A stretch of 64,000 nt of DNA from Candidatus Latescibacterota bacterium (lineage in GTDB: Bacteria; Latescibacterota; UBA2968). The notes below the pieces were generated by a model. The model was not told the origin of the DNA. It did not search any database and saw only the letters and a list, made by a program, of their open reading frames with translations. The stretch spans positions 2,656,001 through 2,720,000 of the forward strand of contig OZ244960.1 of NCBI GenBank assembly GCA_965222605.1. Direction: 5' to 3'. Of this stretch, positions 19,804 to 64,000 are shown in pieces. Each line of letters starts with the position of its first letter. The first letter of the stretch is position 1. The position numbers were made by a program, and so were the translations under genes.

Positions 19804-20564
19804 TGAAGAAACTCCGAGAATTGAACAATCCTACTTCCGGCCTTGCTGAATACCTCAATTCCGTAGGCGATGAGACGAATTGGGACGAATTCCGCTCTCA
19901 CAATTCAGGAGCATCGTACAATGAACTCAGGGATGCTCTAACCCAAAACCAGCATGGACTTTGCGCCTATTGTGAGATTGCAATCAAAGAATGGCGTCGT
20001 CAGGTTGAGCATGTAATTCCGCAAAGTGATGATAAATTGGACAAATCAAAGGACCTCGATATAGCTAACATGGTGGCCTGTTGTATGGGGGGAACCAGAC
20101 CGATGTATGGCCTGGAGGACAATCATTATCTTGAACCAGTGAAACGCAACATGAGTTGTGGTCAGGCAAAGGGGAATCAAAACGACGAAAACTTTATTGG
20201 TCCTCGGATACTACCTGCCTTGCCTTCGCTTATGAAGGTAACTGACAACGGACTGATTGAAGCAGACGAAAATGCTTGCCAAATGGCTGATTTTCTCCCA
20301 GACCATGTGACTCGCACCATTGAGATTCTAAACCTGAACGCGGAACGGCTCCGGTCAGCGCGGGAAAAGCGATGGAAGGGTCTTGATGAAGAATGGCAAC
20401 AAATTGACGTTATTGATGATCCAGATATGATGAATGATTGGATACGCTCCCTGCTAATACCAGATGAGAACGGACAGTTGACACGTTTCTTCACGACGAC
20501 CCGGTCTTACTTTGGCCCACTCAGCGAACCCATCCTCGCGCAACAACCTCAAACGTGGATATAA
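19803..20564 (+). CDS. ptuB: HNH endonuclease, PtuB-like
   Basis: QHGLCAYCE, VEHVIPQS, NMVACC, SCGQAKGN, TIEILNLN; TAATG overlap. Confidence 0.8.
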   Translation: MKKLRELNNPTSGLAEYLNSVGDETNWDEFRSHNSGASYNELRDALTQNQHGLCAYCEIAIKEWRRQVEHVIPQSDDKLDKSKDLDIANMVACCMGGTRPMYGLEDNHYLEPVKRNMSCGQAKGNQNDENFIGPRILPALPSLMKVTDNGLIEADENACQMADFLPDHVTRTIEILNLNAERLRSAREKRWKGLDEEWQQIDVIDDPDMMNDWIRSLLIPDENGQLTRFFTTTRSYFGPLSEPILAQQPQTWI

Positions 20565-24570: not shown

Positions 24571-24599
24571 TTGACATTTGTGCCTGTTTCTATTATTAT
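24571..24599 (+). promoter_or_regulatory. Putative sigma-70 promoter
   Basis: TTGACA-N17-TATTAT, followed by AT-rich imperfect palindromes. Confidence 0.55.
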
Positions 24600-24630
24600 T
24601 CTAAAAATAATAATTATTGGAAGAATAATA

Positions 24631-26040
24631 ATGAAATTCTACAACCGAGAAACAGAACTGGCACTTCTTCGAGACCTCACCGAAAGATCTGCACAATATT
24701 CTCAATTCACCGCAATCTTTGGGCGACGTCGCGTGGGAAAAACAGAACTCGTGCGCCAGCATCTCCAGAACCGCGGCATCTATTTCTTTGTCGAAAAACG
24801 CCCCTCAAATGCCCTCCTCGCCGAATTCTCCGCCACCCTCAAATCGCACATTGCCCACGCGCCCGCATTTACAGATTGGAAAGACTTTTTCGTTTTCCTC
24901 TTTGCCGAAACCCAGCACCAGCACCTGATCGTCGTCTTCGATGAATTTCAAAACTTTCTCACCATCGATCCCGCCATCTATTCCATCCTCCAGGGCGTAT
25001 GGGACACATGGCACAAACAATCCAAAATCCATCTCATCGCCATAGGTTCTGTCGTCGGCCTGATGAAAAAAGTCTTCCAGGACGCCAAAGAACCCCTCTA
25101 CGGTCGCCTAACCCGGGAAATTGACCTCAGCCCTTTACCCATCAACGCCATCTATCAAATCGCTACAGAACTCGGCTTTCAATCGCCCACAGACATCCTG
25201 ACCCTTTACGGCATCTTTGGCGGCATGCCCCGGTATTACGAAATTATGGAAAGCATGGGCCTGGGCGGCAGCACCATCCCCCACATTCTCCATCAAGCCC
25301 TGTTCACTCCTTTTGCCCCCTTTCGCAATGAAATGCGCGACATCATCCTCTCTGAATTTGGAAACACGGCCCACACCTATTTGGCAATCCTCGAAGCCAT
25401 CGCCACTGGCAAAACCCGCCGATCTGAAATCGCAGGTCCCGCCGGACTGCCAGCCACGAGCCTGTCCAAATACCTGCGCGAATTATCCGACCTATTTGAC
25501 CTCATCGAACGCGAAGTACCCATCACCGAGCGATCCTGGAAAACAAAAAAGAGTCGCTATAAAATCCGCGACCCTTTTATCACATTCTGGATGCGATTCA
25601 TCTACCGGCAATTGAGCATCTACGAATCGGGCAATTTCCCCTATTTTCTCAATCGCCTCAATACCTGCGTTTCGGAATTCATGGGCTTTGCCTTTGAAAA
25701 TATCACGCGAGAACTCTTGATCAAACTCAACCACCACAACGCCGCGCCCTTCTACTTTCACCGAATTGGACGCTGGTGGGACAGACAAAGCGAAATAGAC
25801 CTCGTCGCCCTCAACCCGGAAACTCGGCAAACCCTCTTTGTCGAATGCAAATGGACATCCACCCCCGTTGGCACAGACGTTCTACAAACCCTGAAACACC
25901 GCGCACAAAACCTCCCAACCTCGGACGCTTTCTATCTCATCACCTCCAAATCCGGATTTACCGACACCCTCAAAAATTTCCGCGACCCACACCTCTACCT
26001 CTGGGACCCAAACGACATCGCGACATTTTTATATAAATAA
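24631..26040 (+). CDS. Archaeal-type ATPase with wHTH and C-terminal DUF234/PD-(D/E)XK domain
   Basis: FYNRETEL, GRRRVGKT, VFDEFQ, GGMPRY, YKIRDPF, WWDRQSEIDLVA..VECKW. Confidence 0.85.
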   Translation: MKFYNRETELALLRDLTERSAQYSQFTAIFGRRRVGKTELVRQHLQNRGIYFFVEKRPSNALLAEFSATLKSHIAHAPAFTDWKDFFVFLFAETQHQHLIVVFDEFQNFLTIDPAIYSILQGVWDTWHKQSKIHLIAIGSVVGLMKKVFQDAKEPLYGRLTREIDLSPLPINAIYQIATELGFQSPTDILTLYGIFGGMPRYYEIMESMGLGGSTIPHILHQALFTPFAPFRNEMRDIILSEFGNTAHTYLAILEAIATGKTRRSEIAGPAGLPATSLSKYLRELSDLFDLIEREVPITERSWKTKKSRYKIRDPFITFWMRFIYRQLSIYESGNFPYFLNRLNTCVSEFMGFAFENITRELLIKLNHHNAAPFYFHRIGRWWDRQSEIDLVALNPETRQTLFVECKWTSTPVGTDVLQTLKHRAQNLPTSDAFYLITSKSGFTDTLKNFRDPHLYLWDPNDIATFLYK

Positions 26041-44935: not shown

Positions 44936-45009
44936 TGGTTGCCCCCCAGGGATTCGAACCCCGATTCTACGGTCCAGAGCCGCATGTCTTGCCATTAGAC
45001 CAGGGGGCA
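44936..45009 (-). tRNA. tRNA-Gln(CTG)
   Basis: Cloverleaf TGCCCCC..CT-CTG-GA..TTCGAAT..GGGGGCA-A-CCA. Confidence 0.95.
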
Positions 45010-45044
45010 ACAATGTAATCAGCGTTTCGGGATGACACGCACCA

Positions 45045-46466
45045 TCACGACCCCAAAACCTCCAGCGCCTTTTTCAGCCGGCGAACACAGGTTTCCCTTC
45101 CAAGCACAGCCATCAACTCAAACAACCCTGGCCCAAACCCAACGCCGCAAAGCGCGAGACGCGTAGGATGAATAAGCCTGGAAGCCGATATGCCCAATTC
45201 ACCAGCCAGCGTGCGCGTCACACCTTCGATATCGCCTTCGCCAAACGAATCCAAATCCTGCAAACGCTCAATCATCATATCAACGCGCTCGGGCGTATCC
45301 GTCTTCCAATTCTTCTTTGCCGTCTTTGCATCATACACTTCCGGGTCCACAAAAAAATAACTCGTATGCTTCAAATCCTCGAGCGTATGCAATCGCGGCT
45401 GCAACAACTCGGCAATCTTCATCAACTCATCCCGCCGCTCAGACGCCTCTGCCTCCGTAAGCCACCCCTCCGCAATCCAAATCGGTATCGCATCGTCCAA
45501 AACCGCACCCACCGGACGAAGACGCATCTGCTCGCCATTGAGCCAGACCAGCTTCTTCTCGTCGAAAATCGCGTCCCGCTTGAGCAACCCCTCAACCGAA
45601 AACACCTCCGCCAACTCACCGCGCGCAAACACCTCGCGCTCATCCCCGGGTGCCCATCCCAACAACGCGAGATAATTAAACATCGCATCCGACAAAAAAC
45701 CCCGCTCCCGATACTCCGAAATCGTCGTCGCACCATGGCGCTTTGACAACTTGCTACCATCAGGACCCAAAATCAGCGTCGAATGCCCATACTCGGGCAC
45801 CATCCATGAAAGCGCCTCAAACAGCATAATTTGTTTGGGCGTATTCGACAAATGGTCCGCAGACCGCAACACCAGATTCACACCCATATTGTGATCATCA
45901 ACCACCACCGCAAGATTGTAAACAGGAGAACCGTCGGGCCGCAACAAAACAAAATCTTCAACCTCGGCATTATCCCACCGCTGCACCCCCCGAATGCGAT
46001 CATGCCAGACCGTCTCACCCGCAGGCACCTTAAACCGCACAACCCTGGGCCGCCCCTCGGCTTCATAAGCCGCCTGCCGTTCGGGCGTCAAATCCCGATT
46101 GTAGCGCACGCGCCGCTTCTCAATCTGAGCCTGCCTGCGCATCGCATCGAGCTCTTCAGCAGTCTCATACCCATAATACGCATGCCCAGTTTCCACCAAA
46201 CGCGCCGCTGCTTGCTTATGCGCCTCGGCATTATCCGACTGAAACACTGGCTCGGCGTCAAAATCAACACCGAGCCAGTTCAAACCATCCAGAATCGTTT
46301 GAAGAGACGACTCTGTAAAACGCTCTCGATCCGTATCTTCAACGCGCAACAACAACCTTGCTTTATAGTGCTTCGCGTAAAGATGATTAAAAATCGCCGT
46401 TCGCGCATTCCCCACATGAAACCCACCAGTGGGAGACGGCGCAAATCGCAAAACCGTATCAGACAT
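45045..46466 (-). CDS. gltX: Glutamate--tRNA ligase
   Basis: RFAPSPTG, HVGN, RVEDTD, VVDD, KLSKRHG. Confidence 0.96.
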   Translation of the reverse strand: MSDTVLRFAPSPTGGFHVGNARTAIFNHLYAKHYKARLLLRVEDTDRERFTESSLQTILDGLNWLGVDFDAEPVFQSDNAEAHKQAAARLVETGHAYYGYETAEELDAMRRQAQIEKRRVRYNRDLTPERQAAYEAEGRPRVVRFKVPAGETVWHDRIRGVQRWDNAEVEDFVLLRPDGSPVYNLAVVVDDHNMGVNLVLRSADHLSNTPKQIMLFEALSWMVPEYGHSTLILGPDGSKLSKRHGATTISEYRERGFLSDAMFNYLALLGWAPGDEREVFARGELAEVFSVEGLLKRDAIFDEKKLVWLNGEQMRLRPVGAVLDDAIPIWIAEGWLTEAEASERRDELMKIAELLQPRLHTLEDLKHTSYFFVDPEVYDAKTAKKNWKTDTPERVDMMIERLQDLDSFGEGDIEGVTRTLAGELGISASRLIHPTRLALCGVGFGPGLFELMAVLGRETCVRRLKKALEVLGS

Positions 46467-46499
46467 CAAAAATCAACCTATCAATTAACCGCGAATATT

Positions 46500-46591
<92 letters not shown>

Positions 46592-46648
46592 GCAATCAAA
46601 AACAGACCAGCAGAAAGTAACAAAGGACCTGTATAAATGCAAGATAAA

Positions 46649-46736
46649 TGGCGGTGGGGGTGGGATTCGAACCCACGGACCCGTGAAGGTCAACGGTTTT
46701 CAAGACCGCCCGATTCGACCGCTCTCGCACCCCACC
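46649..46736 (-). tRNA. tRNA-Ser(TGA)
   Basis: GGTGGGG acceptor, CT-TGA-AA loop, long variable arm, GCCA end. Confidence 0.95.
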
Positions 46737-48609: not shown

Positions 48610-50058
48610 ATGCCCAAACGAAACGACCTGAAAAAAATAATGCTCATCGGCTCTGGTCCCATCGTCATCGGACAAGCCTGTGAATTTGACTACTCGGGCA
48701 CACAAGCCTGCAAAGCCCTCAAAGAAGAGGGATACGAAGTCGTGCTGGTCAACAGCAATCCCGCCACCATCATGACCGACCCCGAAATGGCTGACCAGAC
48801 ATACCTCGAACCCGTCACACCCGAAGTATGCGCAGCCATCATCGAAAAAGAACGCCCAGATGCCCTCCTCCCAACACTCGGCGGACAAACGGGCCTCAAC
48901 ACAGCCATGGCCCTGCACGAACAGGGAACACTCGAAAAATTCGATGTCGAAATGATCGGCGCAAAACCACACGCCATTGAAAAAGCGGAAAACCGCGAAG
49001 CCTTTCAAAAAGCCATGGGCAAAATCGGCCTCGACTTCCCCAAAGGCCGATTCGCCTACACCCTCAAAGAAGCACTCGCCATCACTGCTGAAATCGGATT
49101 CCCAGCCATCATCCGCCCATCCTACACCCTGGGCGGCACAGGCGCTGGCACCGCGTACAACATCGAAGAATTTAGACACGCTGCTGCACACGGCCTCAGC
49201 CTATCGCCCACATCTGAGATCCTCGTAGAAGAATCCATCATCGGCTGGAAAGAATTCGAACTCGAAGTCATGCGCGACCAAAACGACAACGTCGTCATCA
49301 TCTGCGCCATAGAAAACTTCGACCCAATGGGCGTTCACACGGGCGACTCTATCACCGTGGCACCAGCGCAAACGCTCACCGACAAAGAGTACCAGGAAAT
49401 GCGCGATGATGCCATCGCCTGCATCCGCGAAATCGGCGTGGAAACCGGCGGCTCCAATATCCAGTTTGCAGTAGATCCCAACACGGGCCGGCGCGTCGTC
49501 ATAGAAATGAACCCCCGCGTATCCCGCAGTTCTGCACTCGCCTCCAAAGCCACGGGCTTTCCCATTGCCAAAATAGCCGCCAAGCTCGCCATTGGATACA
49601 CCCTGGACGAAATACAAAACGACATCACGCGCGAAACACCCGCCTCATTTGAACCCACCATCGACTATTGCGTCATCAAAATCCCGCGCTGGACATTTGA
49701 AAAATTTCCCCAAACCGCTGACATCCTGGGCACACAAATGAAATCAGTAGGTGAAACCATGGCCATAGGTCGCACGTTTAAAGAAGCACTGCAAAAAGGC
49801 TTGCGCTCTCTCGAAATCGGGCGCGCGGGTTTTGGCGCCGATGGCAAAGACATCCCCCCCAACACCCTCACCCGCGAAGCCCTCGAACGCGGCCTGCGCG
49901 AACCCAATTCGCAACGACTAACCTATCTCAAAACTGCTTATGACGCGGGATTGTCTGTACAGGAAATTTTTGACGCCACCAAAATTGACCCCTGGTTCCT
50001 CCACAACATGCGACAACTCGTCGAAATCGAAAAAGAACTCGCCGCCCTAATGGACTAA
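48610..50058 (+). CDS. carB: Carbamoyl-phosphate synthase large subunit, N-terminal part
   Basis: [54 protein letters not shown]. Confidence 0.93.
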
Positions 50059-50060
50059 CC

Positions 50061-51878
50061 ATGAAAAAACAGCACACCCTCAATGACTTAAAATCGCGTA
50101 TCTCCCGCGCTGACCTGCACAAAGCCAAACGCCACGGCTTCTCCGACCGCCAACTGGCACACCTGTGGCGCAGTGATGAATGGGCTGTTCGCGCCTTGCG
50201 AAAAGAACTCGGCGTCGCGCCCGTTTTCAAAACCGTAGATACATGCGCGGCCGAATTTGAAGCCTATACACCGTATCACTACTCAACTTATGAGACAGAA
50301 ACCGAAGCCGTGCGATCCAATCGCCAAAAAATCATGATCCTGGGCGGCGGTCCCAATCGCATTGGACAGGGCATCGAATTCGACTATTGTTGTTGCCACG
50401 CCTCCTATGCCCTCAAAGAAGACGGCTTTGAGACCATCATGGTCAACTCCAATCCCGAAACCGTCTCCACGGACTACGACACATCCGACAAACTCTACTT
50501 CGAACCGCTCACTGCCGAAGACGTACTCAACATTGCCGATGTTGAACAACCCGACGGTGTCATCGTTCAATTCGGCGGGCAAACACCCCTCAACCTCGCG
50601 CGCGACCTCGAACGCGGGGGCCTCAACATCGCCGGCACATCGCCCGACGCCATTGACCTGGCCGAAGACCGCAAGCGCTTTGGCGCCCTCATCAAAGAAC
50701 TGGGCATCCGACAACCCGAAAACGGCACCGCAGTAAGCACCGACGAAGCAATCGCCATTGCCAAACAAATCGGATATCCCGTCCTCGTGCGCCCCTCTTA
50801 CGTACTCGGAGGCCGCGCAATGGCGATCGTATATGACCGCGACGCCCTCATCGCCTATATGCGCAATGCCATAGAAGCCTCTCCTGAACGGCCCATCCTC
50901 ATCGACCGGTTCTTAGAAGACGCACACGAATTTGATGTCGATGCCGTAGCAGACCCAACAGCAGTCGTCATCGGCGGCATCATGCAACACATCGAAAGTG
51001 CGGGCGTTCACTCTGGCGATAGCGCCTGCGTATTGCCCCCCTATCAGATCTCCGACGCCAACCTCGATGAACTGCGACGTCACACCCACGCACTCGCCAG
51101 AGCACTCAATGTAGTTGGCCTCATGAACATTCAGTTTGCAATTCAAGGCGAAGACGTATTTATTATCGAAGTCAATCCCAGGGCATCGCGCACTGTCCCC
51201 TTTGTCAGCAAAGCCATTGGCGTACCCCTGGCCAAAGTCGCTGTCCGCGCAATGGTCGGGCGCACACTTGTAGAACAGGACTTCACCCGGGAAGTACCCA
51301 TCAATCACATCGCCGTCAAAGAAGCCGTCTTGCCCTTCAACAAATTTCCCGGCGTTGACACCGTCCTCGGTCCCGAAATGAAATCCACCGGCGAAGTCAT
51401 GGGCATAGATACCGACTTTGGCCTCAGCTTCCAAAAAGCGCAACTCGGCGCAGGCGTGCGCTTGCCCCAGGAGGGAACGGTATTTTTAAGCGTCAACGAC
51501 CGCGACAAAGAAGGGCTTGTACCCATTGCCCAACAACTATCCGACATGGACTTTCGCCTGATTGCCACACGAGGAACGCACGCCTTTCTCCAAAACCACA
51601 ACATTGCCTGTAATTTGATCCTCAAACTTCAAGAAGGGCGCCCAAATATCCTCGACGCCATCAAAAACGGCGAAATATCTCTCATGATCAACACGCCCGC
51701 GGGAGAGCAATCCCAGGCCGCTGATCCTGAAATTCGCAAAGCCGCCGTTCAATACGGCCTGCCCTACACAACCACCTTATCGGGCGCGGCTGCCGCTGTT
51801 GCCGGCATCCAATCGCTCAAAAACAACAGCACAATTCGCATCCGTTCACTCCAGGATTTTCATAATGAACTGGTCTGA
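50061..51878 (+). CDS. carB: Carbamoyl-phosphate synthase large subunit, C-terminal part
   Basis: GFSDRQLA, VDTCAAEF, GGGPNRIGQGIEFDY, IEVNPRASRTVPF, MGS domain. Confidence 0.93.
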   Translation: MKKQHTLNDLKSRISRADLHKAKRHGFSDRQLAHLWRSDEWAVRALRKELGVAPVFKTVDTCAAEFEAYTPYHYSTYETETEAVRSNRQKIMILGGGPNRIGQGIEFDYCCCHASYALKEDGFETIMVNSNPETVSTDYDTSDKLYFEPLTAEDVLNIADVEQPDGVIVQFGGQTPLNLARDLERGGLNIAGTSPDAIDLAEDRKRFGALIKELGIRQPENGTAVSTDEAIAIAKQIGYPVLVRPSYVLGGRAMAIVYDRDALIAYMRNAIEASPERPILIDRFLEDAHEFDVDAVADPTAVVIGGIMQHIESAGVHSGDSACVLPPYQISDANLDELRRHTHALARALNVVGLMNIQFAIQGEDVFIIEVNPRASRTVPFVSKAIGVPLAKVAVRAMVGRTLVEQDFTREVPINHIAVKEAVLPFNKFPGVDTVLGPEMKSTGEVMGIDTDFGLSFQKAQLGAGVRLPQEGTVFLSVNDRDKEGLVPIAQQLSDMDFRLIATRGTHAFLQNHNIACNLILKLQEGRPNILDAIKNGEISLMINTPAGEQSQAADPEIRKAAVQYGLPYTTTLSGAAAAVAGIQSLKNNSTIRIRSLQDFHNELV

Positions 51879-54950: not shown

Positions 54951-55211
54951 TTAGCGTTGATATACGTCGCGACGATGAGCGATACGGTGGATGATAACGC
55001 ACTGATTTGTATCATCAATTTCATAAAGAATGCGGTAGTCTCCTACGCGAATACGCCACGAATTTGGGCGACCAACCAGTTTTTCCACTCTTGAAGGACG
55101 TGGCTCTGATTCCAGTTGGAGAAGATGTCGGTTAATACGTTGACGAATATGGCCCTGCAACCTACGGCGTTCTCGTTCTGCTGCTGAACGCATATGAACA
55201 GCGTAAGCCAT
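54951..55211 (-). CDS. RelE/ParE family toxin
   Basis: EPRP..KLVG..WRIRVGDYRILYEIDD..IAHRRDVY. Confidence 0.92.
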   Translation of the reverse strand: MAYAVHMRSAAERERRRLQGHIRQRINRHLLQLESEPRPSRVEKLVGRPNSWRIRVGDYRILYEIDDTNQCVIIHRIAHRRDVYQR

Positions 55212-55213
55212 TT

Positions 55214-55468
55214 CTAAGATACTTCTCCGGTTTCACGGAGCAAATCGCGCAAAGGTCGCGTTTCGCTATTCTCCTCGTTCGCCTCTTCCATTAACATGGC
55301 GTCAACAGCATCCTGCAAGTGCAGAGGAAGCGTCTCCCAATCTGTTTCCCGAGCTACCTTTTGAAGTAACGTCTTGAAATCGTCATATCCAAGTATCACC
55401 TCAATAACCTCACCCGAGTCATCATATACCCATTTTGGAGAACGAGGTTTTTCGAGAATGCGTGTCAT
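55214..55468 (-). CDS. Putative antitoxin (acidic, 84 aa)
   Basis: 2 bp upstream of the toxin; acidic C-terminus. Confidence 0.7.
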   Translation of the reverse strand: MTRILEKPRSPKWVYDDSGEVIEVILGYDDFKTLLQKVARETDWETLPLHLQDAVDAMLMEEANEENSETRPLRDLLRETGEVS

Positions 55469-55728: not shown

Positions 55729-56358
55729 ATGACCGCACCCACACACATAGCATTTGGACTGCTCACAGCAGCGGGATCCTTTTCGCTCTTTTATACCCCT
55801 TCACCGCAATCTCCCCGCGGTCGCATGCGCCATCCTGGGCAGCGTGCTCCCAGATATAGATTCTCCGAACAGTTATATCGGTCGCGTGCTCCCATTCGCG
55901 TCCATCCCCATCGAGCGGCCTGTGTTTTCCCCGGCAGCGCGAAATACAGAATCAAAACCGGATCTATGGGAGAAAACTATCTGTTAATCGGACTTCTGCT
56001 TATGCTCCTGGTATTCATACCCATATTGCACATGGGTGGTATCTGGAAATCATTCAGATACCTGATGGCCACGCCCTCTGCTGCATACGCAAATTATCGC
56101 AAAGCCGACACAGAAACCGTCTTAACCTTTGAAGGACGCTGGCGACACACGCGGGAGCACGTGCGCGGAGAAGGCGTAATCCTCGATGCCAGACCCGCCC
56201 TGTTCTGGATCATAAGGACTCGCCCGCCCGTTCATTACCTCGAACTGAGGCGGATGGAGCAAGAACTGGAAGAAAAAAAGCAAGAAATCGAAGCCTTGAA
56301 ACGCGCACAGGTGCGATTCAGCGGCACATTATACATTCGCATACTCGGAGACATGTAA
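55729..56358 (+). pseudogene. Degraded YdjM-like membrane metal-dependent hydrolase
   Basis: MTAPTHIAFG in one frame, GSVLPDIDSPNSYIGR in another; the central HR..HS segment is missing. Confidence 0.65.
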
Positions 56359-56399
56359 TGCGCCGTCGAGATAATGTCAGTAATGACAACCAAAACTTT

Positions 56400-56432
56400 C
56401 TGGATCGCGGCTCAAAAACATGCCGCGATGAC
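56400..56432 (+). repeat. CTGGATCGCGGC-N10-GCCGCGATGAC palindrome
   Basis: Family copy. Confidence 0.85.
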
Positions 56433-56436
56433 GGCT

Positions 56437-57840
56437 TTACAACCCATCCCTCTTCATCCTATTTCTCAAAACCATCCTCGAAATACCCAGAAGCGCGGCA
56501 GCGTGAACCTGATTCCCCTCTGTTCGCCGCAACGCCTCTTGAAGCAGTGCCCTCTCAAACGCGGGCAGATTCATTTGATCCTCTAATAGAGATTGCACCA
56601 CCTGTTCAACCCCACTATCTACAATCGGGGCACTCTTAAAAAGATCAAAACCCAGGTCATCCGCCTCAATTTCCCCATCACCGCACAAAATCGCTGCCCG
56701 CTCAACCGCATTCTTCAACATGCGAACATTACCCGGAAACACCTGTCGCTGGAGCAAATCCTCAGCCTCTTTCGAAAACCCCATCAGCGGCTTCCGCAGA
56801 TCGCGGGCATAGTCAGCCAAAAAATGCCGCGCCAGGAACAGAACATCCCCCGCCCGCTCGCGCAACGGCGGCACCTGAATCGCGAACACATTCAACCTGT
56901 AATACAGATCCTCTCTAAAAGCCCCTTCCCTCACCGCTGCAGCAAGCACCCTATTGGTAGCTGCAACCACGCGCACATCTACTTCCATCTCACGACTACT
57001 CCCCACGGGTCGGATGCGTCGATCCTCCAAAGTCCGCAACAAACGCACCTGCATCTCAAGCGGCATATCCCCAATCTCATCCAGAAACAGCGTACCCCCG
57101 TGTGCCAGATCAAAATGGCCCTTCTGATCTGCCTTCGCGTCTGTAAACGCGCCCTTCTTGTGCCCAAAGAATGCGCTCTCAAATAAATTGCCCGGAATCG
57201 CAGAACAATTCACGGGAATAAACGGACCGCCAGCGCGAACACTCTCGCAATGCACAGCCCGAGCAACCAGTTCTTTCCCCGTACCCGTCTCCCCAACAAT
57301 AAGCACCGTCGTATGATCAGTCGCGGCCACCTGCTGAATCTCCGCCTTCATCTTCACAACCGCCTGACTCTCCCCTATCAGCGCATTCAAACCGCCTCTC
57401 TCCCGCTCCCGCGCCTCAAACCGGTCCAGCCTCGCCTGCACCCTATTCTTCTCTTTCCGAAGCACCTGATAGCGCACCGTGCGCTGGATAGCAGCATTCA
57501 GATCCTCCACCTTGAAGGGTTTATTAAAAAAATCAAACGCCCCTTCTCGCAGCGCGCGAAACGCATTCTCGGACTCCTTAACCCCAGTGATCACAATCAC
57601 CTCGGTCTCAGGAGCAACAGATCGCACCCGCCGAAGCACCTCAAACCCATCCATACCCGGCATCTTCACATCTGTAATCACAATATCCACAGCCTGGCTC
57701 TCCACCACCTCCACGCCCTTCTCCCCATTCGCCGCTTCGATGACCGTATGCCCCCTCGCAATGAGAAACTTCCCAATCGCAGCCCGGATATGTGCATCAT
57801 CATCAATCACCAAAATCGTCATGCTGACCTGCTCACCCAT
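56437..57840 (-). CDS. Sigma-54-dependent response regulator (NtrC/AtoC family)
   Basis: Receiver domain (DDD, DVKMPGMDG), GETGTGKE, GAFTDA, FLDEIG, DLYYRLNV, Fis-type HTH. Confidence 0.95.
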   Translation of the reverse strand: MGEQVSMTILVIDDDAHIRAAIGKFLIARGHTVIEAANGEKGVEVVESQAVDIVITDVKMPGMDGFEVLRRVRSVAPETEVIVITGVKESENAFRALREGAFDFFNKPFKVEDLNAAIQRTVRYQVLRKEKNRVQARLDRFEARERERGGLNALIGESQAVVKMKAEIQQVAATDHTTVLIVGETGTGKELVARAVHCESVRAGGPFIPVNCSAIPGNLFESAFFGHKKGAFTDAKADQKGHFDLAHGGTLFLDEIGDMPLEMQVRLLRTLEDRRIRPVGSSREMEVDVRVVAATNRVLAAAVREGAFREDLYYRLNVFAIQVPPLRERAGDVLFLARHFLADYARDLRKPLMGFSKEAEDLLQRQVFPGNVRMLKNAVERAAILCGDGEIEADDLGFDLFKSAPIVDSGVEQVVQSLLEDQMNLPAFERALLQEALRRTEGNQVHAAALLGISRMVLRNRMKRDGL

Positions 57841-57956
57841 TCTTATTCCCCCACATTTACATGCTTTGCTCCTGGAAAAATAAGACGGGATTTGCAAAAA
57901 GCAAGATCACTCATTCAGAATACGGGCATATTATGTTTTCGTGCATTTTGATGTCC

Positions 57957-60413
57957 TTATGCATTGCGACAAAACGCAATCCGCTTGTTAATATCCCTCG
58001 CGACCTCAAGAACCTCCACCGGCGCGCGAACGACTTCACCAGTACGCTGTCGCAGGGCAACGACAAGAGGTGCCAACGCGACGGCATTCGCTCTCGACAG
58101 GACCTCGACAAGATCGCGCTCCGAGACGCCATTAGCGATCAACTCGGGCACAAACTGTAGCATCTCGGACATCATCATTTCATTATCAGGTACGAACACA
58201 GAATACGCCGAACGGAACACACCCATAGCCATCATATGTCTTTTCTTTAGCAGTAGTGCCAAAGCATGTACATACCTTGTTCGCCATGTAAACACCACCT
58301 TCTCATTATCGGTCAAGGCACCAAGTCTTCCTTCAAGCTCTTCACACATCTGCAGAGCTTCTTCCGCACGCCCCATTTTGATTTGCATCATACCCTTTTG
58401 GGACAACGCCCAGGCGACCAGAACCTGAATCTCTGGTGCATCGCTGCTGCCAAAGCGGGTGATCACCTCATCATACGCCTCTATAGCCAATCTCAACTCT
58501 CCCAGTTGGACTTGCATATCTCCCCTTTGGGACAACGCCAGCGCGACCAGAACCTGGATCTCTGGTGTATCGCTGCTGCCAAAGCGGGTGATCACTTCCT
58601 CATACGCCCCTACCGCCAGGCCCAACTCTCCCAGTTGGACTTGCATATCTCCTTTTTTTAACAACGCCAACGCGACCGGAAACTGAAAGTCGGGAGATTT
58701 GCTACTGCCAAAGCGGGTGATCACTTCCTCATACGCCGATACCGCCAAACCCAACTCGCCGAGTTCATCTCGTGCTCTTGCCCCATGGATCAACACGCGG
58801 GCCATCCGCGCCAGAAGTGTTTGGTCGCCCGTCTCGTCGAATCGCTCGACCATCTCGTTGCACACCGCGACCACCCCCTGGAAATCTCCCAATTTCTCAT
58901 AAGCAATCGCCTTCATATGCAATATGTAGGCGATGAGGGACTCTGGCATTAGAGATGAATCCACGCCTCCTGAAGCCATAAAATGGTCACCTATCTCGAT
59001 AACCCTTTCGAATTCTCTCTCCTTGAGTGCCGTTTGGATTTCCTCTTTCAAACGCAGTTCCGCCGTAAATTGAACATTTTCCGTCGCTTTATCCGATATA
59101 TATCTGATAGCCGACCATGCCACGCGTAAAAAACTATCCTCAGAACGCGGCTGTTCGGCGAGCGCACGCTCGATACCCTCGCGAATAACCTTTGACCCCG
59201 CCGCCTCCAAACTCAGCCGACCAAACACCTGGTACAATTCGCCTATCCCGTAGAACGCCACCATGAAATGAATCAGATTTCTCACAACCGTCACCTCGTC
59301 GCGCTCGCGTCGCAGCTTGTAGTAAATACTGTAGAGAGGTTCCGCGGCGGCGTACAATCGCTTCCTGCCAGTCCCCTCCACAATGACCGCACCCCGGTTG
59401 ACGAGTCGTCCGAGCATAGTCGATACAGGCCGAACCTCCATACGCGCGCGCGCCGCAATCTCGCCCGTACTCGATGGTCGCCAAAGGTCAATCAACGCGA
59501 GATACACGCGGCGTTCTCCCCTGCCCAGGACCTCCAGATGACCGCGAAAATACTCGGTATGATCGTCGATCAGCATCACCAGTTCTTCCATCAACTGGCG
59601 CAGTGATCGGTGTTGCGCGAACCCGGCAACGATGACCAGAAGGCGGGGATTGCCACCCGTCAAGATCTCGAGCGGCCTGATCTCGTGCTCGCTCACCTCA
59701 TCGCCGCTGACCACCTCCCAAAGGTGACGGCATTCTTCGGTACCCAGCGGTTCCAGATCGATGATTCGGAACAACTCAAAAAACGGCTCGCCCGCGTCTT
59801 CCAAACCCTCAAAGCGACTCGTCGCAGTAGCGAGCAGCATAATCCGAGGCTCTGACTCCAACGCGTCGCGCAACTGCCAGCCAAAATCATCTTCCACATT
59901 TTCGCAAAGCGCCTGCAGGTTTTCCACCATGAGAACGAGTTTTTTACCCAACCGGTCCGCCGCATCCAGGACAGCGGCAAGGACGCGATCCGCGAGCATC
60001 TCCTCGCGCCAGCGATCGGTCAGATCGGCATGCGTCTCTCGCAGTTCCCCTGCCAGATCGGGATCGTACTTTACACTCTCCCGCGCAAGATGGAACAGGG
60101 TATCGAGCCAGAAATCCGCGAGATTAAATACCTCGTGACTCTCTTCCATAAACCGAACCGGCAAAAAACATCTACAAAGTTCGTCATCAGTATTCAACTC
60201 CGCCGCAACCCGCGCGAGCAACATCGTCTTTCCCCGACCCCGAGACGCGACCACCAGAACATCCTGACACGATGGGGAATTGATATTCCCGCGCAAAACC
60301 TCAAGCACCATATCGAGTTCGCGCTCCCTCACCGCGAACTGCTCAATCACCTCCTCATCGGACTGAAACGTCCCCGGATTGAACTTGCGGATTGGGCGAT
60401 CAAGTTTGTTCAT
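57957..60413 (-). CDS. STAND-like ATPase with wHTH and TPR-like repeats, paralog A
   Basis: SRGRGKT, LMVENL, TGGNPRL, GEIAARARM..STMLGRLV; 43-aa repeats. Confidence 0.75.
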   Translation of the reverse strand: MNKLDRPIRKFNPGTFQSDEEVIEQFAVRERELDMVLEVLRGNINSPSCQDVLVVASRGRGKTMLLARVAAELNTDDELCRCFLPVRFMEESHEVFNLADFWLDTLFHLARESVKYDPDLAGELRETHADLTDRWREEMLADRVLAAVLDAADRLGKKLVLMVENLQALCENVEDDFGWQLRDALESEPRIMLLATATSRFEGLEDAGEPFFELFRIIDLEPLGTEECRHLWEVVSGDEVSEHEIRPLEILTGGNPRLLVIVAGFAQHRSLRQLMEELVMLIDDHTEYFRGHLEVLGRGERRVYLALIDLWRPSSTGEIAARARMEVRPVSTMLGRLVNRGAVIVEGTGRKRLYAAAEPLYSIYYKLRRERDEVTVVRNLIHFMVAFYGIGELYQVFGRLSLEAAGSKVIREGIERALAEQPRSEDSFLRVAWSAIRYISDKATENVQFTAELRLKEEIQTALKEREFERVIEIGDHFMASGGVDSSLMPESLIAYILHMKAIAYEKLGDFQGVVAVCNEMVERFDETGDQTLLARMARVLIHGARARDELGELGLAVSAYEEVITRFGSSKSPDFQFPVALALLKKGDMQVQLGELGLAVGAYEEVITRFGSSDTPEIQVLVALALSQRGDMQVQLGELRLAIEAYDEVITRFGSSDAPEIQVLVAWALSQKGMMQIKMGRAEEALQMCEELEGRLGALTDNEKVVFTWRTRYVHALALLLKKRHMMAMGVFRSAYSVFVPDNEMMMSEMLQFVPELIANGVSERDLVEVLSRANAVALAPLVVALRQRTGEVVRAPVEVLEVARDINKRIAFCRNA
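58372..58760 (-). repeat. 129-bp (43-aa) coding tandem repeats, 3 close copies
   Basis: gccaaagcgggtgatcac recurs at 58449, 58578 and 58707. Confidence 0.9.
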
Positions 60414-60500
60414 TGCGCGTCTCCTAATGATTCTCAGCGGTCAGCAGTCAGCTTTTAGCTCCCCACCCATCCACCCCAGAGCAACAGTGCTTAATTGGCA

Positions 60501-60563
60501 TTGTCAACTAAATCGTTGACAAAATAATATCTGACAAATTTTTGTCAATAAAATTGTTGACAA
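60501..60563. promoter_or_regulatory. Cluster of TTGTCAA/TTGACAA inverted repeats
   Basis: TTGTCAA-N8-TTGACAA twice, plus an overlapping TGACAAATTTTTGTCA. Confidence 0.6.
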
Positions 60564-60645
60564 AAATTGAGAGGCGATACAAGTTGTTATATATTATTGG
60601 GATATGGCACGCAATATCGCGCATGGAATGAGAATAAACCACACA

Positions 60646-60682
60646 AAAAGCCCAATGGTCTCCTCTAAACCGTTGGGCTTTT
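60646..60682. terminator. Intrinsic terminator hairpin
   Basis: AAAAGCCCAATGG...CCGTTGGGCTTTT. Confidence 0.75.
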
Positions 60683-60758
60683 CTTAGCCTGACTGCGATA
60701 GCAGCTCATCAGCTATGGGGTCGTAGGGATAAACCTCGACGGATGGTTGACCTGTATT

Positions 60759-60785
60759 GTAGGGGCGGCGCCCCTGTGCCCGCCC
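60759..60785 (+). repeat. GTAG-type REP element
   Basis: GTAGGGGCGGCGCCCCTGTGCCCGCCC. Confidence 0.8.
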
Positions 60786-60866
60786 GTAGGATGGCAGCCC
60801 CCGTGTAAAAGCGCTACGGGGCAGTCCTGAGGAGTTTGATGTACGATTCACAAACGATTATCGACA

Positions 60867-62969
60867 TCATTTTAATCCGTCAATTCTTGTCTCAATATTC
60901 TTACAGATATCCGCCGCGACCTCAAGGACTTCCACAGGCGCGCGAACCTCCTCGCCAGCACGCTGTAGCAGGGCAACGATGAGGGGTACCAACGCGTCCA
61001 ATTTCTCCTTGTCGCTCGACAGGATCTCGACAAGGTCGCACTCCGAGGCACCATGCGCGATCAACTCAGGCACAATTTCTTGCATCTCGCGCATGGTTAC
61101 TTCGTTGTTGAGTGGAAATGCGGCATACGCAGAGCGAAATGCTTCCAGGGCACCCCGACTTTTTTTTTGGACCATCAGTACCAAAGCTCGCACACACCTT
61201 GCACGCCATGTAAACTCAATTTCTTTGTTGTCGGTCAAGGCACCAAGCCTTCGTTCAAGCTCTTCACAGGTATGTAGAGCTTCTTTTGCATGGCTCATCT
61301 TGATTTGTGTCATACCTTTGTCGAACAACGCCCAAGCGGTCAGATACTGGAGATTGGGTGCATCGCTGTCACCAAAGCGTACGACCACTTCATCATAAGA
61401 CGTTACCGCAGACGCGAACTCGCCGAGTTCCCCGTGCGCTAATGCCTTGTAAGTAAATGCCAGAGCGATTAATGGCTCTGGCACTCGAGACCAATTTGCG
61501 CTCCGATCAGTAAAAGCTTGCCCCAAAGTCTCGATAACCTTCTCGAATGCCCCCTCTTTTAACGCTGTAGTAATCTCTTCGAACAGTCGTTCGACGTTCT
61601 CATTGTCGATTGACGCAGCGAGGTTAGATGCCTGGTCAGTGCTTGGCCGCACTATGTTAGAGAATACACTACCGACTTGAGGTTGTTTTGCGATTGCTCG
61701 TTCAATACCCTCGCGAATCACCGGCAATCGCGCCGCTTCCGAAATCAGTCTGTCGGACATCTCTGCCAGTTCCGCTTCGCTATAGAACACTGCCATAAAG
61801 TGGATTAGATTTGCTACAACCGCCGCCTCGTCGCGCTCACGCCGTAGCTTGTAGTAGATGCTGTAGAGACGTTCCGCGGCAACGTACAGCCGTTTTCTAC
61901 CAGTCCCCTCCACGATGACCGCACCCCGGTTGACGAGGCGGCCGAGCAGGGTTGATACGGTTCGAATGTCCTTGCGCGCGCGTGCCGCGATCTCGCCCGC
62001 GTTCGACGGTTGCCAAAGGTCAACCAACGCGAGATACACGCGGCGTTCGACACTGGCCAGGACCTCCAGATGCCCGCGGAAATACTCAGTATGGTCGTCA
62101 ATCAGTGTCACCAGTTCTTCTATCAAATGGCCTAACGACCGGTGATTTGCAAACTGAGCAACCATAACCAAGAGGCGAGGATTGCCGCCGGTCAGAATCT
62201 CGAGCGGCCTGATATCACGATTGCTCACTTCGTCGCCACTGACTATCTGCCACAAACGACGGCAGTCCTCAGTAGTCAATGGTTCCAGATCGAGGCTTCG
62301 GAACTGCTCGAAGAACGGCTCCTCCGCGTCGTCCAGCCCTTTGAAACGACTCGTAGTGGTGGCAAGCAGCATGATCTGAGGCTCTGATTGCAACGCGCTG
62401 CGGAGTTGCCAGCCGAAATCGGCGTCCACGTTTTTGCAGAGGTCCTGTAGATTTTCGACCATGAGTACGAGTTTTTTGCCCAGCCGATCCGCTGCGTCCA
62501 GGACAGCAGCAAGGACGCGATCCGCGAGTTCCTTCTCGCGCCAGCGATCAGTCAGGTCGGCGTGTGTCTCTCGCAGCTCCCGTGCGAGCGCGGGATCGTG
62601 CCTGGCACTCTCGCGCGCAAGGTGGAACAAGGTTTCGAGCCAGAAATCGGCGATATTGAGTACCTCGTGACTCTCTTCCATAAACCGAACCGGCAAAAGA
62701 CACTCAGAGAGTTTGTCATCAATTTTCAAATCCACCGGAACCCGAAGGTTCAACTCCGCCGCAACCCGCGCGAGTAACATGGTCTTTCCCCGACCACGAG
62801 GCGCGACTACCAGAACGTGCTGACACGATGGTGAATCGATATTCCCGCGCAGGACCTCAAGCACTATATCGAATTCGCGTTTCCTGACCACGAACTGCTC
62901 AACCACCTCCTCGTCGGATTGGAGCGTCCCCGGATTGAACTTGCGAATTCGTTGATCGGACTTGTTCAT
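60867..62969 (-). CDS. STAND-like ATPase with wHTH and TPR-like repeats, paralog B
   Basis: Start MNKSDQRIRKFNPG; APRGRGKT, LMVENL, TGGNPRL; highly similar to paralog A. Confidence 0.75.
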   Translation of the reverse strand: MNKSDQRIRKFNPGTLQSDEEVVEQFVVRKREFDIVLEVLRGNIDSPSCQHVLVVAPRGRGKTMLLARVAAELNLRVPVDLKIDDKLSECLLPVRFMEESHEVLNIADFWLETLFHLARESARHDPALARELRETHADLTDRWREKELADRVLAAVLDAADRLGKKLVLMVENLQDLCKNVDADFGWQLRSALQSEPQIMLLATTTSRFKGLDDAEEPFFEQFRSLDLEPLTTEDCRRLWQIVSGDEVSNRDIRPLEILTGGNPRLLVMVAQFANHRSLGHLIEELVTLIDDHTEYFRGHLEVLASVERRVYLALVDLWQPSNAGEIAARARKDIRTVSTLLGRLVNRGAVIVEGTGRKRLYVAAERLYSIYYKLRRERDEAAVVANLIHFMAVFYSEAELAEMSDRLISEAARLPVIREGIERAIAKQPQVGSVFSNIVRPSTDQASNLAASIDNENVERLFEEITTALKEGAFEKVIETLGQAFTDRSANWSRVPEPLIALAFTYKALAHGELGEFASAVTSYDEVVVRFGDSDAPNLQYLTAWALFDKGMTQIKMSHAKEALHTCEELERRLGALTDNKEIEFTWRARCVRALVLMVQKKSRGALEAFRSAYAAFPLNNEVTMREMQEIVPELIAHGASECDLVEILSSDKEKLDALVPLIVALLQRAGEEVRAPVEVLEVAADICKNIETRIDGLK

Positions 62970-64000
62970 TGCGCGTCTCCCGGTGTTTCGTCGTCGGAAT
63001 GGCGGTTTTCGAGAGATATATAGTGATCGCTGAAACGCGCCGACCACCAGTCCTTCAGCAGACGCGATGGAAAGCGATGTCCCTCGTCGCTGACTTCGAG
63101 ATATCCGTCGTGCATCAGAATTTCAAGTGTATCTGCGATGCGCCCCTGTGCATCGTCAACCACCATGGCGTATAACCCTTCGAGGCAACGACGGGCTCCT
63201 GGCGTGAATACGTCCTGGGTAGCTGCCTCGGCGAGGATCTCCATGGCGATGGTGTGGTTCTCATCTTCCAACGCCTCCTTGAGGCGCGTCTCGTAGTGTA
63301 CAAGGTCGTTCTGTCCGGAAGGACCGAGAAGCCCCGTACGATAGACCTTCTCAACATCTTCCATCGTCACCCGGTCTCGTCCCTGCATGGTGGCATGGTC
63401 CCCCAAACGGGCAAAGAAGGACTGCACATGGTGAGGGATGCCAACACCGAGTGCGTCATACACTACGTTTACCACCCCGTCCTCAACCCGTAATTCGTAG
63501 CTCTCCGCGAGACTTTGGAAACACTCTACACTGGTGTCGCGGTCCCACGGTCCCAAACGAAAAGGTTCGAGATGATTGATGCGATCGGGTATGCCCAACC
63601 GATTTACGAAAGGCGTAAGCCCAATGCTACCAGATACGATGAGGACCAAAGAACCGTCTTCGATATCTTGAAGCACTCCGCGCAACCAGCTCAGAAACTC
63701 ATCAACCCGTTGGAATCCATCTTCATCGCGAAGCACACGCTTGAGGAATATCGGCAACTCGTCAATGACGAGGAGAACAGATTGCTTGCGCGCAGCACAA
63801 TGCCGAAGTAGCTCTTCTCCTTGGCGCCGCCAGTTCCCGGCATTCAGAATGGCCCGGAACTTCACGCTAACGTCGTATGCACCGATCTCCTCGACCCTGC
63901 CGAACAAGCGTTTCATGGCGGTACCGACACGCACGACACGCGATGTGATGGGACGAATGGGATGCACGGCCTGTGCGATGTCTGCGATTACGTCCTCAGC
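62966..64000 (-). CDS. ATP-binding protein (AAA/STAND-like), 5' end outside the window
   Basis: Walker B VLLVIDEL, IVSGSIG, GIPHHVQ, LMHDGYL..LLKDWW; ATGA overlap with paralog B. Confidence 0.75.
   Translation of the reverse strand, partial: AEDVIADIAQAVHPIRPITSRVVRVGTAMKRLFGRVEEIGAYDVSVKFRAILNAGNWRRQGEELLRHCAARKQSVLLVIDELPIFLKRVLRDEDGFQRVDEFLSWLRGVLQDIEDGSLVLIVSGSIGLTPFVNRLGIPDRINHLEPFRLGPWDRDTSVECFQSLAESYELRVEDGVVNVVYDALGVGIPHHVQSFFARLGDHATMQGRDRVTMEDVEKVYRTGLLGPSGQNDLVHYETRLKEALEDENHTIAMEILAEAATQDVFTPGARRCLEGLYAMVVDDAQGRIADTLEILMHDGYLEVSDEGHRFPSRLLKDWWSARFSDHYISLENRHSDDETPGDAQ

Follow-up and report, generated by a model that had tools for sequence, protein, structure and literature searches.

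A mobile gene pair of an ORC/Cdc6-like ATPase and a STAND/NLR-like repeat sensor that travels with an operator-like palindrome

Introduction

Signal transduction ATPases with numerous domains (STAND) are recognized by a motif set that comprises the motifs Walker A and B, an arginine at sensor-1 and, within the helical domain, a GxP motif. NLR (nucleotide-binding, leucine-rich repeat) proteins of fungi and bacteria can carry arrays of tetratricopeptide (TPR), ankyrin (ANK) or WD repeats, in which near-identical units change in number and vary at a few surface positions, and they usually possess an N-terminal effector or adaptor. To our knowledge, the characterized bacterial STAND/NLR-like receptors kill through a fused enzymatic effector. 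Here, we describe a STAND/NLR-like sensor type that forms a pair with a separate AAA+ ATPase. The pair lies at the end of a 64,000-nucleotide stretch of a Candidatus Latescibacterota bacterium (contig OZ244960.1, positions 2,656,001 to 2,720,000; hereafter the window), where an ATPase gene is followed by two paralogous genes, encoding sensor B and sensor A, with an NTPase, a winged helix-turn-helix (wHTH) and a TPR array each. An earlier note on this DNA, made from the sequence alone, had read the three genes as a conflict or immunity module. The anatomy of the cassette is well supported: an active ORC/Cdc6-like ATPase and a STAND sensor, whose Walker B is unusual and whose repeat array varies, form a mobile and probably self-regulated unit. 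As to its role, we tentatively favor, at somewhat less than an even chance, a mobile and autoregulated NLR-like conflict sensor without a fused effector, whose output would be the partner ATPase or DNA binding itself.

MalT/LAL, AfsR/SARP and GutR proteins combine an NTPase with a helical repeat sensor, bind DNA and oligomerize on repeated DNA sites. The cassette resembles them through weak TPR_MalT matches in its relatives. However, it lacks a LuxR/GerE or OmpR/BTAD domain, so its DNA reader would be the wHTH inside the nucleotide-binding oligomerization domain (NOD); it also differs in its partner ATPase and its hypervariable repeat number, and no regulated neighbor genes were found. PH0952 of Pyrococcus horikoshii (PDB 6mfv), a STAND-TPR protein from the MalT-like group, matches sensor B best in structure (E 4.4e-8) and exhibits the same NTPase-wHTH-TPR order without an effector. 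The two proteins share only 14% identity, and we know of no partner ATPase or operator relationship for PH0952. The cassette ATPase shares its AAA+ core, lid and C-terminal winged helix with the PF01637 'archaeal ATPase' proteins (2qen and 2fna) and with archaeal Orc1/Cdc6. Those proteins stand alone or are replicative, with no bacterial function described, whereas the cassette ATPase is bacterial and strictly linked to a STAND-TPR protein.

Avs/AVAST proteins are similar to the sensors in their STAND NTPase core and large TPR-like sensor, and Avs3 (8dgc) and Avs5 (9jap) rank near the top in the fold comparison; horizontal spread and the frequent presence of defense genes nearby are further shared traits. 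According to a survey of 589 STAND clades (PMC13581612), each Avs protein (Avs1-5 and Avs7-21) is one polypeptide whose N-terminal part forms the effector, for instance a nuclease, protease or SIR2 domain. In contrast, only 24 residues precede the NTPase (AAA_16 match) of the cassette sensor, which shows no N-terminal or fused effector domain and differs further in its separate AAA+ partner gene, promoter palindrome and E-N Walker B. The Avs models of PADLOC 2.0 match none of the three proteins at E values up to 0.1. Bacteriophage exclusion (BREX) is an earlier example of a defense system in which an ORC/Cdc6-type ATPase that is active joins a STAND-type partner that is degenerate: according to PMC12839542, the active ORC/Cdc6-like ATPase BrxC occurs with the inactive STAND-like BrxB/BrxF. 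The cassette proteins give a faint BrxF match in PADLOC and NCBIfam (E 0.0055-0.018), far below the cut-offs; BREX requires the PglX methyltransferase, PglZ and further genes, none of which is conserved at the 77 cassette loci analyzed below.

No description of the ATPase-sensor pair was found in the literature, and we did not come across it in the STAND survey (PMC13581612), whose supplementary clade tables may list it. A family of thousands appears to retain the sensor logic, with the place of the effector taken by a separately encoded AAA+ partner and an operator of its own.

Sequence and fold of the ATPase and the sensors

All three genes of the module are encoded on the minus strand. The ATPase gene (62966..64000) encodes an AAA+ protein that is ORC/Cdc6-like and of PF01637 type; it is represented by its 3' part, 344 of ~416 codons, open at the 5' end. 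Because its full-length relative P0123 (99% identity) has 416 residues, ~216 nt of the gene and its promoter lie beyond position 64000. Sensor B (60867..62969) is a STAND-type NTPase-wHTH-TPR protein of 700 residues, counted from its ATG at position 62969. Its start shares an ATGA overlap with the stop of the ATPase gene (62966..62969), where the sequence reads ...GCGCAATGAAC, as described in the earlier note. Sensor A (57957..60413), the paralog of B, has 818 residues and contains three close 43-residue repeats with degenerate flanking units.

The close relationship between the two sensors holds as previously described, with 62% identity (393/633 columns). Conservation is concentrated at the NTPase/wHTH region and the C-terminus, also in agreement with the note: tblastn gives 77% identity over residues 1-430 and 61% over the last 145, and in the pairwise alignment the C-terminal block reaches 54%. 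These last 145 residues are helical and are assigned to no family (Pfam, AlphaFold2 (AF2) model).

The sensors display a STAND motif set with one conspicuous deviation. Sensor B contains PRGRGKT, VENL, the sensor-1 TSR and GGNPR, together with the conserved C-terminal helical domain. The Walker A sequence is VVAPRGRGKT in B and VVASRGRGKT in A, and the Walker B sequence is LVLMVENL in both. Both motifs had been called atypical. This description applies to Walker B, where E-N replaces the usual D-D/E, but not to Walker A, which fits the general P-loop pattern, [AG]x4GK[ST]. In 66 aligned sensor relatives, R58, G59, R60, G61, K62 and T63 and L169, M170, V171, E172 and N173 are invariant; more broadly, PRGRGKT, LMVEN, ATxTSR (R208, sensor-1) and GGxPR (G261, G262 and P264) are invariant or nearly so across these sequences. 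Sensors B and A therefore possess the motifs of the STAND NTPase superfamily, with Walker B deviating as E-N. This substitution suggests that the sensor may bind ATP but hydrolyze it poorly. In Pfam, AAA_16 matches the two sensors at E 7e-9 and 6e-9, and TPR families are also matched. The TrmB-type wHTH scores 26.8 bits in B, above the cut-off of 25.6, and 20.0 bits in A. An assignment to the NACHT-type bacterial NLRs (bNACHT) fails: the Pfam NACHT model matches paralog A alone, with 12.9 bits (E 0.1) where the cut-off is 26.7.

The ATPase exhibits canonical motifs, GQRRMGKT and VIDELP (Walker B), and a C-terminal winged helix. Its full-length relative P0123 matches AAA_22 at 34.6 bits (cut-off 27) and AAA_16 at 33.3 bits (cut-off 32.6) in Pfam, and reaches 31.5 bits with ATPase_2 (PF01637), just under the cut-off of 33.2. 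The AF2 model of the ATPase (pLDDT 83.7, pTM 0.82) finds its best folds in 2qen and 2fna, the archaeal PF01637 proteins (TM 0.56-0.65, E 1e-11), followed by Orc1/Cdc6, and a profile search of the PDB retrieves 2qen at E 6.6e-4. The profile match and the AAA+ core-lid-winged helix fold place the ATPase in the PF01637/ORC-Cdc6-like group. Its look-alikes in the ESM Atlas are merely clusters of 'ATP-binding protein'.

The AF2 model of sensor B has a pLDDT of 74.4, with low confidence at residues 207-276. Its fold matches are, in order, 6mfv, Avs3, Orc1, 2fna, SAMD9, Avs5, Apaf-1, CED-4 and NRC. The matches to 6mfv, Avs3, Avs5, Apaf-1, CED-4 and NRC (E 4e-8 to 1e-3) identify a STAND fold, and with 6mfv, Avs3, Orc1 and Avs5 as top PDB matches, the STAND/ORC-like fold with a TPR sensor that the note had proposed stands. 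A sequence search of the PDB returned designed or generic TPR proteins and the weak 2qen match, and nothing else. No effector had been visible in the sequence, and Pfam, PADLOC and NCBIfam likewise detect no enzymatic domain in the three proteins beyond the NTPase cores described here.

Conservation and horizontal spread of the pair

The cassette is horizontally mobile and self-contained. One genome per species was scanned, which gave 385 stretches, and the best 80 of these yielded 77 loci, all from metagenome-assembled genome records. The 77 loci span nine named phyla, most of them in multi-megabase chromosomal contigs; the NOD identity is 63-89%, and the tree is shallow. The sensor has at least 3142 relatives and the ATPase at least 1480 (E up to 0.001), with 68-99% identity of the ATPase over the 120 best relatives listed. 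Upstream of the sensor, an intact ATPase gene directly adjoins it in 46 of the 77 loci, an ATPase gene that frameshifts or deletions have disrupted, or remnants of one, are found in 22, the ATPase is absent in 8 and the contig ends in 1. The pairing of an ATPase with an NTPase-wHTH-TPR protein, which the note had inferred from the window, is thus conserved in 46 loci, with remnants in 22 more. The 46 intact pairs include 14 with the 4-nt ATGA overlap and 12 in direct abutment.

When the flanking open reading frames (ORFs) were clustered, just two families proved to be conserved, that of the sensor in 75 loci and that of the ATPase in 57. No third conserved gene was detected at the 77 loci, and the next cluster, present at 12 loci, consists of ORFs antisense over the family genes. 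The flanks of the cassette vary between lineages.

Among the relatives listed, 120 of near length and 94 longer ones of up to 2486 residues, no fused effector occurs, and the domains are exclusively NTPase, wHTH and repeats. One apparent exception, Card1_endonuc, which appears in the domain strings of 15 of the longer relatives, is spurious: in the two relatives scanned, it lies inside TPR units and scores 18-22 bits against a cut-off of 26.4.

More distant forms of the pair extend to plasmids of isolates. An adjacent pair at 19-27% identity is present on five plasmid records, one of Clostridium estertheticum, two of C. tagluense and two of Moraxella osloensis. The Clostridium sensor retains VENLQDL and the GxP motif, and the Walker B VENL is kept in both Clostridium and a sister subfamily (40-47% identity), which adjoins the main pair in three gammaproteobacterial loci. 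At these loci, the diverged ATPase and sensor (40% and 46-47% identity) are convergent to the main pair (L033 17209-19733, L046 14123-16644 and L070 13597-16118, minus strand). Two sister-subfamily proteins of 1243 residues, P0262 and P0272, have ~850 C-terminal residues without a TPR or other Pfam match, and the sensor part is apparently replaceable in some members of this subfamily. A distant ATPase relative on a Segatella copri plasmid (L078 5983-8030) overlaps a short AAA and MarR-wHTH protein, which has no repeats and a canonical D-E Walker B and adjoins WYL and DUF262 genes.

The repeat array

The number of repeats was expected from the two window sensors to vary, and this variation is extensive. 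In the window, the three close repeats of sensor A are encoded by a tandem array (58393..58765, minus strand; 129 nt x 2.9 copies, 85% matches, Tandem Repeats Finder). The repeat counts given in the note, three close units plus a degenerate one in A and about one in B, agree with units at residues 551, 594 and 637 of A, with degenerate units on both sides, and a single unit at residue 515 of B. Across 122 proteins, 901 units were found, 0-14 per protein, and the protein length follows 648 + 42.4 x n (r = 0.965), where n is the number of units. In the 90 sensor genes of the loci, the number ranges from 0 to 26. The repeat model detects no unit in 11 of the 90 genes (L012, L020, L055, L056, L059, L066, L070, L072, L046, the first copy of L013, and L061). 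In 10 of these (516-598 residues), the NOD nearly abuts the conserved C-terminal domain; the sensor of L061 has 870 residues.

The units are more alike within a protein (identity 0.65, and 0.73 for adjacent units) than between proteins (0.48), and in this respect, as well as in their near-identity, changing number and restricted variability, the array resembles NLR arrays. Variability is greatest at positions 4, 5, 25, 28, 29, 32, 35, 36, 39, 40 and 42, and the variable positions 25-42 follow a helical spacing that marks one face of the second helix. Such a pattern is expected for a ligand-binding surface that would be reshaped by unit gain, loss and conversion.

An operator-like palindrome ahead of the module

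An operator-like palindrome accompanies the cassette, which is a new observation. In the window, two copies lie upstream of sensor A, TTGTCAAT-N6-GTTGACAA at 60542..60563 and TTGTCAAC-N6-GTTGACAA at 60501..60522, neither with an assigned strand. The former overlaps the predicted -35 element and the latter the predicted -10 element of a sigma-70-like promoter of sensor A (60521..60548, minus strand; TTGACA, 16 nt, TATTTT), which is predicted from a consensus match only (10/12). A search of the 64-kb window that allows up to 3 mismatches retrieves no copies but these two, against 0.19 expected, and none of 100 shuffles reaches two.

The association holds across the 1.63 Mb of the 77 loci. When up to 2 mismatches are allowed, 91 palindromes are found, of which 78, in 54 loci, precede the start of a family gene by no more than 300 nt. 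The core CAAC-N6-GTTG is found within 200 nt upstream in 163 of 203 cases, in 66 loci, and occurs at 0.025 per kb in the rest of the sequence. Of the 13 palindromes outside the upstream regions of family genes, none marks a recurrent neighbor in the 1.63 Mb, and all are weak and variable in spacing save one in L004, a short distance upstream of an ATPase remnant. Across phyla, one to three copies cover the promoter ahead of the module. Related palindromes precede the sister subfamily (CCAAC-N6-GTTGG type) and the Clostridium pair, and a different, perfect 20-bp palindrome is present in two copies upstream of the Moraxella pair; on the M. osloensis plasmid pNP7-2 (L081 3669-3741), this is TAACTATAAAATTATAGTTA, twice ahead of the distant pair. 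The half-sites and the wHTH recognition helices show no clean co-variation in the main family, the sister subfamily and Clostridium.

From the fact that the motif accompanies the genes in different phyla, and from the MarR/TrmB-like wHTH of the sensor, we infer that the module represses its own promoter. The cassette is probably autoregulated through its own wHTH. In addition, an inverted repeat (I5) with 14-nt arms that are 93% complementary forms a hairpin followed by a T-run at 60646..60682 (minus strand), a likely terminator of the ATPase-sensor B operon; it is absent from the terminator-scan list because its loop has 9 nt.

The conserved palindrome and the DNA-binding character of the wHTH had been overlooked in the earlier note, and they open a regulatory reading, which is the main rival of the conflict sensor. 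The sensor may be a STAND transcription factor in the manner of MalT/LAL, AfsR or GutR, whose TPR array senses a cellular or environmental ligand with no role in conflict. ATP-driven oligomers on the repeated palindromes would switch the operon itself and a further regulon, and the ATPase would act as a co-regulator or chaperone. The wHTH type, the palindrome over the promoter, the lack of an effector domain and 6mfv as the top structural match all agree with this proposal, as does the housekeeping context of the window copy, which lies upstream of a sigma-54 regulator gene that is syntenic in 7 Latescibacterota loci. A regulon, however, is not apparent: no conserved target gene exists at the 77 loci, and the off-site palindromes are weak save the one in L004. 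Moreover, transfer across phyla, 0-26 near-identical repeats, face-specific variability, gene decay and defense-rich surroundings are unusual for a housekeeping regulator. We consider the transcription factor possible, though on the unlikely side. If it is correct, the cassette would be a mobile transcription factor with itself as the sole conserved target, which is odd in its own right.

The palindromes, together with the Orc1/Cdc6 fold matches of both proteins, could also be taken as signs of an initiator-origin pair, as at archaeal origins, left by an integrated or defunct mobile replicon, with the repeated palindromes in an AT-rich spacer serving as the origin. Such a replicon is highly improbable. 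No integrase, partition or helicase gene is conserved alongside the pair at the 77 loci, the contigs are mostly multi-megabase and chromosomal, the palindromes coincide with promoter hexamers, and the TPR array would have no explanation.

Sensor A as an old orphan duplicate

The two sensors of the window had been regarded as interchangeable. This view is contradicted by the history of sensor A, which is an old Latescibacterota duplicate with a lost ATPase, a clade of its own and a fixed number of three repeats. In a tree of 90 NOD regions, the B-type and A-type genes form separate Latescibacterota clades of 10 rows each, with Shimodaira-Hasegawa-like approximate likelihood ratio test (SH-aLRT) values of 97 and 99. 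A-type genes contain exactly 3 units in 10 of 10 genomes, and B-type genes 0-6. Among the 77 loci, the tandem second paralog is confined to one Latescibacterota lineage. Directly upstream of sensor A, ~20 nt (60414..60433, minus strand) form a remnant of the ATPase 3' end, with 16 of 20 bases matching, including GGAGACGCGCA before the ATG. Every A-type gene has two palindromes upstream, followed by ~20-30 nt matching the ATPase 3' end, and the remnant is also present in 9 other Latescibacterota loci. The ATPase remnant and the palindromes together indicate that A is a duplicated module whose ATPase was deleted long ago.

The gene that starts ~60 nt past the sensor A stop (56437-57897, minus strand) encodes a sigma-54-dependent response regulator, which combines a receiver domain with AAA+ and Fis HTH domains. 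The cluster of this regulator follows the A-type gene in 7 Latescibacterota loci, and its position therefore reflects lineage synteny rather than a part of the cassette elsewhere.

Asymmetric decay of the ATPase

The two partners are not maintained equally. The ATPase is broken or absent in 30 of the 77 loci, whereas the NOD of the sensor is intact in 90 of 90 copies, and the label 'helper ATPase' given in the note is not supported by this pattern. Such asymmetric decay fits sensors that use an ATPase in trans, and it also fits toxin-antitoxin (TA)-like logic.

The TA-like alternative regards the pair as a selfish cassette in which the free ATPase is harmful and the DNA-binding sensor represses the operon and restrains the ATPase, while the repeats matter little; the cassette would persist and spread since its loss is costly. 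Type II TA operons autoregulate from palindromes, and the palindrome layout of the cassette operon resembles this arrangement. Horizontal spread is likewise in line with a selfish element, and the decay looks as if the toxic partner were lost first. Nevertheless, the proteins are very large, gene order and sizes match no TA type, the varying TPR array would have no role, and none of the many TA and Abi models of PADLOC matches. Type II TA membership in particular fails, with proteins of 416 and 700-818 residues and no TA family in Pfam or PADLOC. A TA-like cassette thus appears quite improbable.

Proposed mechanism and defense neighbors

For the conflict sensor that we favor, the following mechanism can be envisaged. 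At rest, the sensor would sit on the palindromes as a dimer or oligomer through its wHTH and repress its own operon. A foreign protein, from a phage or plasmid, would be bound by the repeat array, and the ATP-bound NOD would then oligomerize. The sensor oligomer would engage the partner ATPase, the likely executor because it is the sole catalytically competent part. The output of the ATPase may be an action on DNA or replication, or the consumption of ATP; no nuclease, protease, NADase or pore domain would take part. Paralog A, as an orphan sensor controlled by the same operator, would presumably draw in trans on the ATPase that the upstream operon encodes.

A more specific version of the conflict sensor goes further and is accordingly less probable; we regard it as unlikely. 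Here, a hydrolysis-impaired STAND sensor would be both an autorepressor, by means of its wHTH on the travelling palindrome, and a ligand-triggered activator of the ORC/Cdc6-like ATPase, whose immune action would be on DNA, for example a block to the replication of the invader or the host, or would lie in ATP consumption. Orphan sensors would share the ATPase, as in paired plant NLRs, and the modules would be exchanged among co-occurring phyla.

The genomic surroundings hint at a link to defense islands. PADLOC was applied to representatives of 246 of 248 clusters, which cover 340 ORFs within 2.5 kb of the module; two giant ORFs remained outside the PADLOC batches and were scanned with Pfam instead. 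RtcR/PspF (sigma-54 regulator), RTasPolA, TnsB and PD-T4-6 were discounted as generic, as were matches weaker than 1e-10. A defense gene of an unambiguous family lies within 2.5 kb in 24 of the 77 loci, and a gene of any PADLOC family (E up to 1e-10) in 36. The neighbors include type I, II and IIG restriction-modification, Bunzi, Tiamat, Hma, DRT, AbiL-like, IetS, QatC, SoFic and PDC candidates. In addition, the Moraxella pair (L081) adjoins an annotated gene of the Qat anti-phage system, QatD. The association with defense islands, whose lack the note had named as refuting, is suggestive only: defense genes are frequent neighbors, but distal ORFs match PADLOC equally, and the neighbors in the window do not match it.

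Several observations weigh against a conflict role. The PADLOC matches do not decay with distance, amounting to 17 of 125 ORFs at 6 kb or more and 53 of 340 within 2.5 kb. In the window, 3 of 43 ORFs outside the module match PADLOC, and the immediate neighbors of the module, which comprise the carB halves, pyrimidine, TonB-TPR and sigma-54 regulator genes and a ParE pair, give no PADLOC defense match. The three module proteins themselves have no significant match in PADLOC 2.0 and NCBIfam, and no relatives were found in 50,697 phage records. The loss of the ATPase is a further difficulty: the proposed executor is lost or broken in 30 of the 77 loci with the sensor intact, and many sensors may therefore work without it. 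Finally, the wHTH is a putative binder of the palindrome, and either of the two proteins may be the one that binds.

If the cassette is immune in function, it would represent a new output route for NLR-like proteins, in which an ATPase of the ORC type acts on DNA or ATP, and a counterpart in bacteria to NLR pairs of sensor and helper. Both the immune and the regulatory readings can be tested directly by way of the palindrome, which is conserved, the E-N of Walker B, which is invariant, and the plasmid pairs of the Clostridium and Moraxella isolates.

Other features of the window and of the loci

At 30-40 kb from the module, the window contains a small defense cluster, which consists of a Septu system (18493-20564; PtuA E 2e-116, PtuB E 4e-60) and the PDC-S27 candidate defense gene (24571-26040, E 2.5e-54); these are the three ORFs outside the module that match PADLOC. 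Closer to the module, at 2.5 kb, a ParE-family toxin ORF of 86 residues (E 4.6e-12) is preceded by an 84-residue ORF without a family (54951-55468, minus strand), and the two are likely a TA pair. Between this pair and the sigma-54 regulator gene lie overlapping plus-strand ORFs of 209 and 93 residues (55729-56639) with no Pfam or PADLOC family. The large chain of carbamoyl-phosphate synthase is encoded as two ORFs of 482 and 605 residues (48610-51878), split inside the oligomerization domain. In the region 44936-46736, a glutamyl/glutaminyl-tRNA synthetase gene is flanked by a tRNA-Gln and two tRNA-Ser genes. The two giant neighbors scanned with Pfam are a 2920-residue Ig/PKD-repeat protein (L017 19-8781) and a 1981-residue protein with DEAD helicase, MZB and S24 peptidase domains (L040 1644-7589).

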